Virus record (IMG/VR): IMGVR_UViG_3300036802_000003
Location: 1 to 64,000 of that record
Length of the DNA: 64,000 bases
Reading direction: 5' to 3' (one strand)
DNA from: a virus
Taxonomy: Duplodnaviria; Caudoviricetes
This document shows positions 33,164 through 37,724 of the stretch, in pieces. The notes beneath the pieces were generated by a model. The model searched no databases. It was not told where the DNA came from and saw only the letters and a program-made list of their open reading frames with translations. Numbering within the stretch: the first letter of the stretch is position 1; each line of letters opens with the position of its first letter. A program made the translations under genes and the position numbers.

Positions 33164-34207
33164 GTGATAGAAATGATAACGGACTACCTAGATGGATCAC
33201 TAGGAGAGGGTAATTACCATAAGACGCAGAAAGGTGACCAGTATAGCTATCAGTGTCCTTTCTGCAAAGACCATAGAGACAGGATGTTTGTCAATGTGGA
33301 TAGGAAGGTATACTTTTGTCATAACTGTGATGCGACTGGTACACTAATCTCACTCATAGCTGACTATACACAGATTTCATACAAGGAAGCACTAGATATA
33401 TTCAGAGAATACGATGGGTATGAGCAGGAGCTACCAGATGACTTGGAAGAGGAAATATACAAGAGACTGTATAAGGCACCAGAGATTGAGATAGTTAAGA
33501 CTATTCATCCCTTACCTGAGGAGTTTGTCCCAATAGAAGAAGCTAGGGGCAAGCTAGGAAAAGAGATGGTTAAGTATATTAAGAGCAGGGGACTGACTCT
33601 TAGTATGGCAGAGCGTTACTCAATGGGTTACTGTAATGGAGGAAAGTATGACAGACGTATCATTATGCCAGATTTTGAAGACTATGAACTCATATACTGG
33701 CAGGCAAGGACAATAGACCCACCACCTAAGCTAAAGCTTCTGAAGAAGCATTATAGAAAGGTACTGAATCCTTCTCTAACTGAAGAAGAGATAGACAGAG
33801 GTATGATGGCTGTAGATAAGTCAGAGATTGTATCTAACATTGACTTAATACTGGACAATGGTGTTGCAGTTATCTGTGAGGGTAAGATGGATGCCTACAC
33901 AATAGGTGATAGCGGAGCTGCTATCCATGGTAAGGTTATGTCTGATACTCAATTTATGAAACTAGTCTCAAACAAAGACAAGATAGACGTTATATACGTT
34001 ATGTTGGATGGTGATGCTTTCGAGTATGCAATAAGAATTGCAAAGCGACTATATAAGCACTTTGACGATGTGTACATTTGTAGAATGCCTCATAAGGAAG
34101 CAGACCCGAATGGTATTGGTGCTAGGGGTTGCTTGCAGGTAATAGAGGAAGCAGTGAGATATTCCCCTCTATTTGAGGTTAAAGCTCGCATCAGAGGATG
34201 GATGTAG
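33164..34207 (+). CDS. DNA primase (Zn finger + TOPRIM)
   Basis: CPFC...CHNC; RRIIMP; ICEGKMDA; LDGDA; DPN. Confidence 0.9.
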   Translation: MIEMITDYLDGSLGEGNYHKTQKGDQYSYQCPFCKDHRDRMFVNVDRKVYFCHNCDATGTLISLIADYTQISYKEALDIFREYDGYEQELPDDLEEEIYKRLYKAPEIEIVKTIHPLPEEFVPIEEARGKLGKEMVKYIKSRGLTLSMAERYSMGYCNGGKYDRRIIMPDFEDYELIYWQARTIDPPPKLKLLKKHYRKVLNPSLTEEEIDRGMMAVDKSEIVSNIDLILDNGVAVICEGKMDAYTIGDSGAAIHGKVMSDTQFMKLVSNKDKIDVIYVMLDGDAFEYAIRIAKRLYKHFDDVYICRMPHKEADPNGIGARGCLQVIEEAVRYSPLFEVKARIRGWM

Positions 34208-34209
34208 CA

Positions 34210-34249
34210 GGGGGACGAGTTTTCGTGGGAGGGTTTTTTTAAGTCGAAC
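34210..34249 (+). promoter_or_regulatory. Putative middle promoter
   Basis: GGGGGA-N18-TTTTTTT-AAGTCGAAC. Confidence 0.6.
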
Positions 34250-34272
34250 AAGCAATTGAGGAGGACGAGGAC

Positions 34273-34866
34273 ATGGACAGACTATTAACTTTAGAGAAAA
34301 CGGTGTTAGATTTAGAAGATGCTCTGCACCAGACACAACGAGAATTCAAACTATTTAAAGACCTTATGTTAGGTCAACCAGAATTACCATACTTCTCTGA
34401 TATCCCAGGATACCAGTTACAGTACCATCACAATGGAGATGCAGGTATTGACCTACCTATCTTTGATGAGCGCTTACTTGATGGTGAATTCGGTACTGAA
34501 GGGTTTGTAGACATCCACCCAGGATGTAGCTATACTCTTAAAACAGGAATTCATATGGCAATCCCACAAGGTCATTATGGTATGCTGGACACACGTTCAG
34601 GCACATCTAAGTTAAAAATGACTCTGTTATGCCGCACTATTGATGAGCCATTCCGTGGTAACATTCGTTTAGCATTACACAATGTAGGCACTGAAACAGT
34701 TCGTGTGGCTAACTACGATGAACTAGCACAAATGGTTATCAAGCGTTACACTAAGGCTGCACCTAAGGGCTTTGCCACTTATGGTGAGTTCCTTGAATAT
34801 GCAGGTAATACTGCACGTGGGCAGGAAGGTTTTGGTAGTAAAGAACGTAATGTAGGAGGGAAATAA
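34273..34866 (+). CDS. dut: Trimeric dUTPase
   Basis: DAGIDL, TRSG, TIDEPFRG, LAQMV, RGQEGFGS. Confidence 0.9.
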   Translation: MDRLLTLEKTVLDLEDALHQTQREFKLFKDLMLGQPELPYFSDIPGYQLQYHHNGDAGIDLPIFDERLLDGEFGTEGFVDIHPGCSYTLKTGIHMAIPQGHYGMLDTRSGTSKLKMTLLCRTIDEPFRGNIRLALHNVGTETVRVANYDELAQMVIKRYTKAAPKGFATYGEFLEYAGNTARGQEGFGSKERNVGGK

Positions 34867-35315
34867 TGAAAACTAGTACTGCACTAGATGTCATTGAACA
34901 GGGTAGAGCAGTTAGACGCAGGGGTTGGGTAAAAGGTGCTGTAGTATATAAGTCTGACAATGATATCATTGTGGACTATTCTAGAGTAGAGGAGTCTAAA
35001 CTGAGTGAAGCCTTCTCTACAGTGAGATGGATAGCCAAGCCTGAAGATTTGGTGGCTACTGACTGGGTAGACCTAGGGGTACTTACAGAAGGTAAGGAAC
35101 CTAACTGGGAAACTGGTTGGTCTAAGTATGATGAGCGCTTACAGGAGTTTGCAGTAAAGGCAGATGCAGTTAGGCTTGCGGTTAATGACCACATAGACCT
35201 AGCTAGCTATGCAAGAAACTCGTTCCGCATGCATATGGATACTACTATGTTGTGGGGCAAGCAAGCAATAGAAGATGCTATTGCACGTGAAGAGCTTATA
35301 AAGGAGGGCAAATAA
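34866..35315 (+). CDS. DUF2829/Tad2-like domain fused to an Acb2/Tad1-like helical hairpin (putative anti-defence sponge)
   Basis: ALDVIEQGRAVRRRGW...W....EDLVATDW; C-terminal ARNSFRMHMDTTMLWGKQAI. Confidence 0.55.
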   Translation: MKTSTALDVIEQGRAVRRRGWVKGAVVYKSDNDIIVDYSRVEESKLSEAFSTVRWIAKPEDLVATDWVDLGVLTEGKEPNWETGWSKYDERLQEFAVKADAVRLAVNDHIDLASYARNSFRMHMDTTMLWGKQAIEDAIAREELIKEGK

Positions 35316-35316
35316 C

Positions 35317-35490
35317 ATGAGTAGACCTAGAGAGATTCAGGCAGGGGAGTTAGCTAAGAGATTTACGTCCCTTAGGAGCCTTATTGATATTACTATACCT
35401 GATAGTCGTGAGAAGTCAGTGGCTCTCACTAATTTAGATACTGGGTATCTATGGGCAAAAGAAGCTCTAGACAAGAAAGGGGACAAGTGA
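35317..35490 (+). CDS. Acb2/Tad1-like hairpin protein, 57 aa; not in the ORF track
   Basis: MSRPREIQAGELAKRFTSLRSLIDITIPDSREKSVALTNLDTGYLWAKEALDKKGDK; RBS AAGGAGG; P.SREKS.A.T.L....W motif. Confidence 0.7.
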   Translation: MSRPREIQAGELAKRFTSLRSLIDITIPDSREKSVALTNLDTGYLWAKEALDKKGDK

Positions 35491-35491
35491 T

Positions 35492-35752
35492 ATGGACATT
35501 GGATATGCTAGAAACTTGATTAAAGAGGGAAAAAAGGCTGCTCGTAAAGGTTGGAATGGGGCAAACATGTTCATATACTATGTACCTGCTGCTTCATACC
35601 CACCTGTAACAGATGTTGCAAAAGAAGCATTTGGCGGAGAAGATGTACCATATCGTGAATACGTTGCCTTAAAAACAGCACAGGGAGACGTTGCTACGTG
35701 GTCACCTAGTGGCTCTGATTTCCTAGCTGATGATTGGATAGAAGTAAGATAA
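35492..35752 (+). CDS. DUF2829 / Thoeris anti-defence 2 (Tad2)-like protein
   Basis: GKKAARKGWNG..MF...Y.ALKTAQG....WSPS.SD.LADDW. Confidence 0.8.
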   Translation: MDIGYARNLIKEGKKAARKGWNGANMFIYYVPAASYPPVTDVAKEAFGGEDVPYREYVALKTAQGDVATWSPSGSDFLADDWIEVR

Positions 35753-35914
35753 GTGAGAAACTGGTGGGATATATACACCATTGATTACTGGAAAGAGTTT
35801 TGGTTTAGGGTCTACATCCGTAAGTATCATATGGATGTAGCCCGTTTCCATAAAGAAGTAGCTAAAAAATATAAGAATGGAGCTGAACAAGATGTCAGTA
35901 GTAAACAAAGGTAA
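35753..35914 (+). CDS. Possible Trp/aromatic-rich 53-aa peptide; not in the ORF track
   Basis: GTG start directly after the Tad2-like stop; MRNWWDIYTIDYWKEFWFRVYIRKYH...; fills the intergenic gap; weak RBS. Confidence 0.4.
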   Translation: MRNWWDIYTIDYWKEFWFRVYIRKYHMDVARFHKEVAKKYKNGAEQDVSSKQR

Positions 35915-36269
35915 AAATATCAAGCAGGTAGATGAGAAGAAGCAGAAACAACAGGAGATTAAGCGTAAGGAGAAAGAGGTACAACGTCAAAAGGCTTACT
36001 GGAATGCTATGATTACACGTGAAGAAGCACGTGATATGGTTATCAAGTCACAAGAGCCTTTAATGGAGCAAATGCGTACTATGTTTATTCAAGTGAAAAC
36101 ACTTACAGAATTTGTGTTACAGAATGGTATTGCTACAGAAGAACAGCTTAATGAGATTGGAGTGCCTATCTACAATGAAATGTACGGTATTCCAAGTAAG
36201 CAAGAAGTAGAGAATCCAGAGGAGGTGACTAAGGATGCCGATAAACCTGTCCAAGGGTCAAACAATTAA
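35877..36269 (+). CDS. Hypothetical protein
   Basis: 130-aa ORF overlapping the terD start. Confidence 0.6.
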   Translation: MELNKMSVVNKGKNIKQVDEKKQKQQEIKRKEKEVQRQKAYWNAMITREEARDMVIKSQEPLMEQMRTMFIQVKTLTEFVLQNGIATEEQLNEIGVPIYNEMYGIPSKQEVENPEEVTKDADKPVQGSNN

Positions 36270-36900
36270 TCTGTCTAAAGAAGGTACTAACGGTCTAAAG
36301 AACGTAACAATTGGTCTTAGCTGGGGTGCAAAGGTATTAAAGGCAAGCCCTACTAAGGAAGAGGCAAAAGGGTTTATGGAAAAGTTCTCTTCCTTTTTTA
36401 AAGGCGGAGAGACGAAAATCACTACCCCTACTAGTGTTCCTAAAATGGACATCGACTCTTCAGTATTCTTGATTAAGAATACTAACGAACGCCTGACAAC
36501 GGTATACTATGGTAACCTACGTGCTCCTGGTGTACGACATGCTGGAGATGACCTTACAGGTAACAATAAGAAGGGTAAGCACGACAATGAGGAGATTCAT
36601 GTAGACTTTGACAAGATACCTCGTAATGTGCACAAACTATTCGTAGTTGCTAATGTATTCTCTCCTATGACTGGTCACTTTGGGTGGGTACCTGGATCAT
36701 ACATCCGTATCAAGGATGAAAAAGGTAACGAGGTAGTACGTTATGAATTAGGGGCAGACTTCAAGGATAAGAAAGGTATTGTTGTAGCAGAGTTATACCG
36801 TGATGGTAACGGTGACTGGAATTTCCGTGCCATTGGTAAAGCTACAAAAGGTAATTCTATGAGGAATCTAGAAGACTTATGTTTACAGGGGGACTTCTAA
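36235..36900 (+). CDS. terD: TerD/TerZ-family stress protein
   Basis: INLSKGQTINLSK, GLSWG, DIDSS, HAGDDLTG, DNEEI, AELYR...W.FRAIG. Confidence 0.9.
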   Translation: MPINLSKGQTINLSKEGTNGLKNVTIGLSWGAKVLKASPTKEEAKGFMEKFSSFFKGGETKITTPTSVPKMDIDSSVFLIKNTNERLTTVYYGNLRAPGVRHAGDDLTGNNKKGKHDNEEIHVDFDKIPRNVHKLFVVANVFSPMTGHFGWVPGSYIRIKDEKGNEVVRYELGADFKDKKGIVVAELYRDGNGDWNFRAIGKATKGNSMRNLEDLCLQGDF

Positions 36901-36903
36901 TAT

Positions 36904-37656
36904 ATGGAAATCTTACAACATATACTTGATACCTACGCACAGTTCTTTGACTGGAGCATGTGGGGAGAAGTACTTACTAGTAAATCAGCTTGGGGCTTAA
37001 TCCTAAGTTTAGTAATCCTTGAGGGCTTGTTATCAGCAGATAACGCCCTCGTACTTGCCATCATGGTAAAACACTTACCAGAGGAACAACGTAAGAAAGC
37101 TTTATTCTATGGACTACTTGGTGCATACTTCTTCCGATTCCTATTCATTGGAGTAGGGACTCTACTAATCAAGCTGTGGTACGTTAAACTAATTGGTGCG
37201 GCATACCTACTGTGGATTGTAGTTGACCACTACCGTAAGAAGAATGTAGAGCAAGAAGAGGGTAAAGAGTTCAATACAGGTGGAGTACTTGTAAAATGGT
37301 TCGGTGTATTCTGGGCTACTGTTATCTCTGTTGAGATAATGGACATAGCGTTCTCTGTGGACAGTATCCTAGCAGCGCTTGGTGTATCAGAGCAAGTTTG
37401 GGTATTATTACTTGGTGGAATGTTAGGAATTCTAATGATGCGTGGAGTGGCTCAACTATTCCTATGGTTACTAGACAGAATTCCTGAACTAGAGAATACT
37501 GCATACTTCTTGATACTGGCGATTGCAGTTAAGATGGGTGGAAGCGTGTTTGGTCTAGAAATTAGCCATGAAGTGTTCGTTATCACTCTAGTGAGTGCAT
37601 TTGCCATCACATTTGCGTTGCATTATCTTAAAAAATACCTACCCCGTAAGGGTTAA
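36904..37656 (+). CDS. terC: TerC-family membrane protein (YceF/MeeF-like)
   Basis: LEGLLSADNALVLA.MVKHLP..QRKKAL.YG; MDIAFSVDSILAA; GGMLGILMMR. Confidence 0.93.
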   Translation: MEILQHILDTYAQFFDWSMWGEVLTSKSAWGLILSLVILEGLLSADNALVLAIMVKHLPEEQRKKALFYGLLGAYFFRFLFIGVGTLLIKLWYVKLIGAAYLLWIVVDHYRKKNVEQEEGKEFNTGGVLVKWFGVFWATVISVEIMDIAFSVDSILAALGVSEQVWVLLLGGMLGILMMRGVAQLFLWLLDRIPELENTAYFLILAIAVKMGGSVFGLEISHEVFVITLVSAFAITFALHYLKKYLPRKG

Positions 37657-37724
37657 CATAGATTAGAGAGAGGATATCCTCTCTCTATTTTCTTTGTTTA
37701 AGAAGGGTATAATTTAAGGGGGTT

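Follow-up and report, generated by a model that had tools for sequence, protein, structure and literature searches.

The stretch of DNA analyzed here (the window) covers the first 64,000 nucleotides (nt) of the viral record IMGVR_UViG_3300036802_000003, and our subject is a cassette of three small genes within it, named (a), (b) and (c), that lies directly downstream of the dUTPase gene and encodes candidate sponges for bacterial immune signals. The source of the window is a complete 139,244-base pair (bp) phage genome with direct terminal repeats that shows ~86-87% nucleotide identity to the Bacillus phages CP-51, Shanette and JL (Herelleviridae, Siminovitchvirus), and on this comparison we assign it to a CP-51-like (Siminovitchvirus) myophage of the Bacillus cereus group. 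All three open reading frames (ORFs) are on the plus strand at the coordinates where an initial annotation had placed three coupled genes downstream of a dUTPase; the ORFs, their Shine-Dalgarno sites and the Pfam dUTPase match (PF00692) agree with that layout. The features of the locus, all on the plus strand, are as follows (aa, amino acids; AF2, AlphaFold2).

34273..34866, plus strand: dUTPase, 197 aa (PF00692, E 6.8e-13; phrog_135, E 6.5e-33)
34866-35315, plus strand: gene (a), 149 aa, Tad2-like N-domain followed by an orphan C-half
34866..35069, plus strand: residues 1-68 of (a), a compact, divergent Tad2-like (DUF2829) domain (PF11195, 36.8 bits)
35073..35315, plus strand: residues 70-149 of (a), the orphan C-half (two long helices in the AF2 secondary structure)
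35317-35490, plus strand: gene (b), 57 aa, minimal Acb2/Tad1 hairpin (DUF7681; PF24729, 28.6 bits)
35492-35752, plus strand: gene (c), 86 aa, canonical Tad2 (PF11195, 78.7 bits)
35727..35752, plus strand: putative recombination junction in the last ~8 codons of (c) (blastn)
37664..37687, plus strand: first strong terminator-like hairpin, 3' of TerC (10-bp stem, then a T-run)

The dUTPase stop codon and the start of (a) overlap, consecutive cassette genes either overlap at their stop and start codons or leave 1 nt between them, and each cassette gene has a Shine-Dalgarno site that is encoded within the Lys/Glu/Gly-rich tail of the gene before it, an arrangement from which we judge (a), (b) and (c) to be translationally coupled. 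All three ORFs are real coding genes under purifying selection: measured against the relatives, the ratio of nonsynonymous to synonymous substitution rates (dN/dS) was 0.20 for (a), 0.18 for (b) (on 5 differences only) and 0.05 for (c) (against Shanette gp138). No terminator-like site was found on the plus strand from primase to TerC (33750-37297), and the lack of an internal terminator before the hairpin at 37664-37687 suggests that a single long transcript likely runs from the dUTPase or primase gene to TerC. A promoter scan returned 13 sites versus 12.6 in shuffled sequences (i.e., no excess), and we claim no promoter.

Comparison with the relatives revealed that the dUTPase gene lies upstream of this slot in all of them, and that the combination of modules between it and a conserved 53-aa gene varies by genome:

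Window: (a), (b), (c)
Three metagenomic relatives: (a), (b), t70
CP-51: (a), t70
Shanette and JL: (c), t70

Here, t70 denotes a third, divergent Tad2-like gene of 70 aa (phrog_1048, E 3.8e-10) that is present in all of the relatives and not in the window (L001:2482-2694, CP-51 gp79; L002:2373-2585, Shanette gp139; L013:3127-3339). In its pocket loop, W-S-P takes the place of W-N-G, and the ligand of t70, like that of (a) (see below), may differ. The junctions between modules have in common a motif of ~20 nt, GGAGG..TAA.ATG. At the 3' end of the slot, blastn aligned window positions 35478-35747 with the Shanette gene (c) and positions 35727-36300 with L013, CP-51 and Shanette downstream of t70, the two alignments overlapping by 21 nt. 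From 26 nt before the (c) stop codon, inside the (D/E)(D/E)W.(V/E)V motif that is conserved at the C-terminus of DUF2829 genes, the window is again homologous to the 3' end of t70 in the relatives and to the genes downstream, and this resumption within the motif indicates that (c) replaced t70 by recombination at 35727-35752. Modules would thus be swapped by recombination both at the common stop/Shine-Dalgarno/start junctions and inside the DUF2829 C-terminal motif. Because the modules are shuffled among the relatives and (a) exists without (b) in CP-51, the modules of the cassette probably act independently.

Among the three proteins, (c) is the clearest, and we classify it as a genuine, canonical Tad2 that is closest to MoTad2/ModTad2. 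Its score against the Pfam Tad2-like family (PF11195) is well above the cut-off of 25 bits, it aligned over its full length with the solved MoTad2/ModTad2 proteins (PDB 8V3E/9EIB; E 3e-27, ~56% identity as counted from the printed alignment), and it matched SPO1 Gp34.65 (8SME) at E 1e-9, all in keeping with its initial description as a canonical-looking DUF2829 protein. The pocket for glyco-cyclic ADP-ribose (gcADPR) in HgmTad2 consists of W21/N22/G23 and W87/S90/T92/D93, and mutation of these residues abolishes binding. The equivalents in (c) are W21, N22, G23, W70, S73, S75 and D76 (i.e., the GWNG loop and the W..S.SD residues are retained), and the sole change is a conservative T-to-S. This homology and these pocket residues suggest that (c) most likely sequesters the ADP-ribose (ADPR)-type Thoeris signals made by Toll/interleukin-1 receptor (TIR) proteins. 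MoTad2 sequesters histidine-ADPR (His-ADPR) and, in a second pocket, cyclic UMP and CMP (cUMP/cCMP); (c) may also bind cUMP/cCMP and, given its 56% identity to MoTad2, is predicted to act as a homo-oligomeric sponge, probably a homotetramer. Unlike the solved Tad2 proteins (MoTad2, SPO1 Gp34.65 and HgmTad2 8KBI), (c) appears to be recombinant in its last ~8 codons.

We read (b) as belonging genuinely, though in minimal form, to the very large Acb2/Tad1-hairpin family (Pfam PF24729, Acb2_Tad1_hairpin, DUF7681), to which the initial annotation had also likened it. Its 28.6 bits pass the PF24729 cut-off of 27 bits marginally, and it is the sole PF24729 match in the whole phage genome. It matched phrog_1454 and phrog_14434 at E ~1e-9, and tblastn found relatives in ~190 phage records, including the hairpin-only proteins (55-67 aa) Gordonia Smoothie gp11, Paenibacillus PBL1c gp73 and Mycobacterium MyraDee gp45 and a protein of 165 aa with the annotation 'cyclic nucleotide sequestering protein'. 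A seven-sequence family profile recovered >6,600 proteins, mostly of 60-75 aa and named DUF7681 or Acb2/Tad1 hairpin; against the PDB, this profile matched Acb2 homolog 43 (9PTQ; E 1.3e-6) and Tad1 chains (E 0.012), with the match falling exactly on SRE..ALT..E.A.MW. Seven residues are invariant in a 40-member family alignment (P28, R31, E32, K33, T38, W46 and A47), and (b) keeps all seven. In CmTad1, R88 and T95 coordinate the three phosphates of cyclic triadenylate (cA3) at the trimer interface, and W103 sits in the hexamer interface (bioRxiv 10.1101/2023.11.15.567273); the spacing R31-x6-T38-x7-W46 in (b) is identical to that of CmTad1 R88/T95/W103. AF2 with the 40-sequence alignment predicted helices at residues 5-26 and 31-54 with a predicted local distance difference test score (pLDDT) of 91.6, and the top seven PDB matches to this model in Foldseek were all Tad1 chains, at E 0.7-1.1, which is non-significant, as expected for 48 residues. 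A full-text literature search for DUF7681 returned no papers.

In common with the solved hairpins (9PTQ; CbTad1/CmTad1 7UAV and 8KBB-8KBH; T4 Vs.4 7UQ2), (b) has a hairpin of two helices and the P..REK....T.......WA signature with its Arg/Thr pair and its Trp. Tad1, in contrast, has a beta-sheet domain that holds the gcADPR/cyclic dinucleotide pocket and is absent from the hairpin-only (b), and Acb2 and Acb2_43 have N-/C-terminal strands or tails for vertex pockets, of which (b) has none. The vertex pocket, which binds cyclic GMP-AMP (cGAMP) or 3'-cyclic ADPR (3'cADPR), is built by such terminal parts (Y11/L14/P90 in PaMx33 Acb2; T4-V7 and strand beta-1 in Acb2_43). Only 4 residues of (b) lie ahead of helix 1 and 3 beyond helix 2; it lacks the N-terminal IENNFKYH segment of typical family members and is ~10 residues shorter than they are. 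By analogy with its relatives, (b) is predicted to form the family hexamer, in which it would lack the terminal segments for a dinucleotide/3'cADPR vertex pocket and would keep only the trimer-interface pocket for cyclic trinucleotides, via Arg31 and Thr38.

Two relatives of (b) deserve separate mention. Paenibacillus phage PBL1c gp73 (L009:1162-1365) and many P. larvae records encode 67-aa Acb2/Tad1-hairpin proteins; several Paenibacillus phage and UniRef records label such proteins 'phosphomannomutase', which looks like a propagated misannotation. In Curtobacterium phage JoyLin (gp61-gp62, L007:1123-2063), a protein of 165 aa, labeled a cyclic nucleotide sequestering protein, combines the hairpin with a C-terminal beta-rich extension, and its gene lies directly upstream of a nicotinate ribosyltransferase gene. 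The JoyLin pair may represent a sponge coupled with counter-defense through salvage of nicotinamide adenine dinucleotide (NAD).

The third protein, (a), is less conventional. Its N-terminus had been called DUF2829-like, and we likewise identify residues 1-68 as a Tad2-like domain, albeit a divergent one with a remodeled ligand pocket: the domain scored 36.8 bits against PF11195 (37.5 bits in a search of the phage's own genome; cut-off 25) and weakly matched HgmTad2/AcrIIA7 (8kbi; E 0.007). In common with the solved Tad2 proteins, it passes the Pfam threshold and retains both Trp residues and the Asp (W21, W55, which equals W87, and D61, which equals D93). It differs from them in its length of 68 aa, in a C-terminal helical extension unseen in them, and in the replacement of three of the seven pocket residues (N22->V, S90->K and T92->E in HgmTad2 numbering). 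The pocket loop reads GWVKG instead of GWNG and is one residue longer, W..K.ED stands in place of W..S.TD, and the inter-strand insertion from which HgmTad2 builds its dinucleotide pocket is much reduced in length. This altered pocket may allow a changed ligand.

The C-half of (a) is found in CP-51 and the three metagenomic relatives besides the window, with a dN/dS of 0.18-0.27, and AF2, run with only four near-identical sequences, gave a poor model (pLDDT 57.5) with helices at residues 87-106 and 112-148. It gave no Pfam match at E ≤ 10, including to PF24729, PF21825 (Sequestin) and PF13876 (Acb4). Nor did PF21825 match at E ≤ 10 in a six-frame search of the whole phage genome, or PF13876 anywhere in the 139 kb, and the tail was therefore rejected as a Sequestin or Acb4 domain. 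Searches against PHROGs returned only noise (E 0.2-0.35) and no family; an exhaustive HMMER search of 1.84 billion representatives retrieved the C-half itself and two repeat-protein artefacts (P0009 and P0010, rejected as homologues because they are internally repetitive and their scores repeat-inflated); a feature search of the ESM Atlas gave no usable match; and tblastn against 50,697 phage records found CP-51 alone. By these searches, (a) is a rare variant that occurs in four to five known genomes, and its partner domain falls into no family that could be detected.

The initial annotation had aligned the C-terminus of (a) with (b) by eye. This likeness proved real but very short: HMDTTMLWGKQAIE in (a) resembles NLDTGYLWAKEALD in (b) over 14 residues around a Trp, with 6 identities (BLASTP pairwise E 0.001) and a Smith-Waterman score that was reached by 11-13 of 5000 shuffles (p≈0.002), and the likeness stops at this Trp motif without reaching into the rest of the hairpin. 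The hidden Markov model of the family scored the C-half at 6.2 bits (reached by 3 of 2000 shuffles) versus 74.5 for (b), and hhalign against the 40-member hairpin profile gave 2.5% probability over 15 columns. When anchored on W130, the family invariants P, R, E, K, T, W and A correspond to L112, Y115, A116, R117, M122, W130 and G131. The C-half keeps the Trp, plus an Ala four residues later (A134); five of the seven invariants (P, R, E, K and T) are missing, among them the Arg and Thr that bind cyclic trinucleotides, and we found no alternative R-x6-T register on reading residues 85-149. Because there is no PF24729 or hhalign link and the invariants are replaced, we do not class (a) as a Tad2-Acb2/Tad1 fusion, and filing it as one was rejected. 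The suggestion that the cassette holds two copies of each sponge fold consequently stands for the Tad2-like fold and falls for the hairpin. We put the chance of distant kinship or one-helix convergence between the C-half and (b) at roughly one in three. We read (a) as a possible sponge of altered or unknown specificity, rather than a fusion of two known sponges, in which the orphan helical tail most likely serves as an oligomerization module.

The explanation that we favor as a whole, with a probability of about 0.65, is that the region between the dUTPase gene and the TerD/TerC pair is a hypervariable anti-defense slot filled with independently acting and exchangeable small genes, among which (b) and (c) add new members to known families. 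The original view of the locus as an anti-defense cassette is supported. Several observations weigh against our explanation. The Pfam score of (b) exceeds the cut-off by only 1.6 bits, and its best Foldseek matches are non-significant (E ~0.7). The R/T/W motif of (b) is also needed for hexamer assembly, and its retention is therefore no proof of trinucleotide binding. AF2 predicts the fold of (a) poorly (pLDDT 57.5), such that 'helical hairpin' describes its predicted secondary structure. The Trp motif that (a) shares with (b) is rarer than chance and, together with a weak pass in co-folding (see below), means that the two may be kin or in contact. Finally, DUF2829 includes AcrIIA7, and (a) may thus not be a sponge at all.

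If (a) were not a signal sponge, its DUF2829 domain would have been recruited elsewhere, as an AcrIIA7-like or other protein-targeting inhibitor, and its helical tail would be a dimerizing or target-binding coiled coil. The best solved matches of (a) are indeed HgmTad2/AcrIIA7 chains, only at E 0.007-0.04; three residues needed for gcADPR binding in HgmTad2 (N22, S90 and T92) are replaced non-conservatively and the dinucleotide-pocket insertion is curtailed; and many larger phage proteins whose role is not known contain DUF2829 (profiles phrog_1048, phrog_872 and phrog_30130). However, the slot otherwise holds only sponge-family genes, (a) keeps W21, W55 and D61, and Tad2 homologues are known to switch ligands by remodeling their pockets, and we consider a non-sponge (a), coiled-coil tail included, unlikely. 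A similar doubt can be raised for (b), which could be a decaying, functionless remnant of a full-length (~67 aa) hairpin gene, given that it is ~10 residues short of typical members with the N-terminal segment gone, is absent from CP-51 and passes Pfam marginally. Against this, the Shine-Dalgarno site of (b) is strong and its start codon is coupled; (b) is 96% conserved across three other genomes with a dN/dS of 0.18 (on those 5 differences), retains all seven invariant family residues and has a confidently predicted fold (pLDDT 91.6); equally short members (52-57 aa) are moreover known in other Bacillus phages and metagenomes. We regard decay of (b) as very improbable.

A different possibility, put forward in the initial annotation, is that (a) is a true fusion of Tad2 with an Acb2/Tad1 hairpin that assembles with (b) into a hetero-oligomeric, multi-specific sponge. 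The shared 14-residue motif around the invariant Trp would fit such an assembly, as would the predicted helix-loop-helix, which in the C-half and (b) is of comparable length and carries its Trp about equally deep in helix 2, and the fact that (a) and (b) are neighbors and translationally coupled in 4 of the 5 genomes that carry (a). Co-folding of residues 70-149 of (a) with (b) scored 0.50, 0.53 and 0.50 in three runs versus 0.00 for the best of three controls, the runs agreeing in at least 88% of contacts with a partner pLDDT of at least 76. Of 80 solved complexes, 58 reach the pass mark of this test, as do 2 of 110 mismatched pairs; passes with a score of 0.60 or less comprise just 7 of the 80 solved complexes and both of the passing mismatches, counts that apply only roughly here because we supplied our own alignments. 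By the tool's calibration, passes this weak are wrong more often than they are right, and in models helical hairpins readily pack together. We thus take the co-fold as weak support, i.e., a small upward nudge for a hetero-oligomer and not evidence of binding. Against co-assembly, the C-half has no PF24729 match at E ≤ 10 and aligns by hhalign at 2.5%, its homologues are confined to four near-identical genomes, and P28, R31, E32, K33 and T38 are all replaced. CP-51, moreover, retains (a) without (b). We also looked for a Tad2-like domain in 10 other viral contigs with a (b)-like hairpin and found none, and a recurrent adjacency of the two elsewhere was rejected on this count (0/10). These results weaken the hetero-oligomer and speak against an Acb2/Tad1-like C-half, and we consider co-assembly of a true fusion quite unlikely. 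A more specific version, in which the C-half is an Acb2/Tad1-type hairpin, now highly diverged and deprived of trinucleotide ligands of its own, and sits in a mixed core with (b), displaying remodeled Tad2-like domains, is in our view highly doubtful. That the cassette sequesters signals not yet described, as was also suggested, is pure speculation.

Downstream of the slot, a Trp-rich 53-aa ORF (35753-35914; phrog_23323, E 4e-34) begins with a GTG start that abuts the (c) stop codon, and it overlaps a gene for a 130-aa Lys/Glu-rich protein (35877-36269; phrog_24050, E 2e-72); both are kept in all of the relatives and lie between the sponge slot and TerD. Directly downstream (36235-37656) lies a pair encoding TerD (PF02342, E 3e-38) and a TerC-like membrane protein, apparently on the same transcript, which would end at the 37664-37687 terminator. 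Upstream, the dUTPase carries an N-terminal extension of ~55-80 residues without a family match (34273-34515), and the Pfam dUTPase match starts at residue 81.

Sponge fusions have been published, namely Tad2-Acb4 from Pasteurella phage Pm86 and Tad2-Sequestin (PF21825) (bioRxiv 10.1101/2025.07.12.664507), and a Sequestin-Acb4 sponge fusion has likewise been described. Like (a), the Tad2-Acb4 and Tad2-Sequestin fusions join a Tad2-like domain to a short all-helical domain in a phage anti-defense context. In these fusions, however, both halves are recognizable sponge families, whereas the C-half of (a) gave no match to either PF21825 or PF13876. A search of the supplement of the 2025 sponge-diversity preprint found no CP-51, Shanette or JL proteins. 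Drift of specificity within sponge families is also established: Acb2_43 binds 3'cADPR, MoTad2 binds His-ADPR and cUMP/cCMP, and Tad2_71 binds N7-cADPR. Since sponge clustering, sponge fusions and specificity drift have all been published, the cassette is no new kind of system.

Its value lies in what its parts can reveal, as each new specificity among phage sponges has revealed or confirmed a bacterial immune signal. Across the five related phages, four modules form a natural series of shuffled combinations (a|b|c, a|b|t70, a|t70 and c|t70) that could be matched to the defenses of B. cereus group hosts. At 57 aa, (b) offers a clean test of whether the cyclic-trinucleotide pocket at the Acb2/Tad1 trimer interface works without the remaining protein. 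A mixed (a)/(b) core, if true, would make this the first phage sponge built as a hetero-oligomer, and its target might be an undescribed immune signal of the B. cereus group. Even on its own, (a) is a rare Tad2-like protein whose remodeled pocket and orphan helical tail make it a candidate for a changed ligand.

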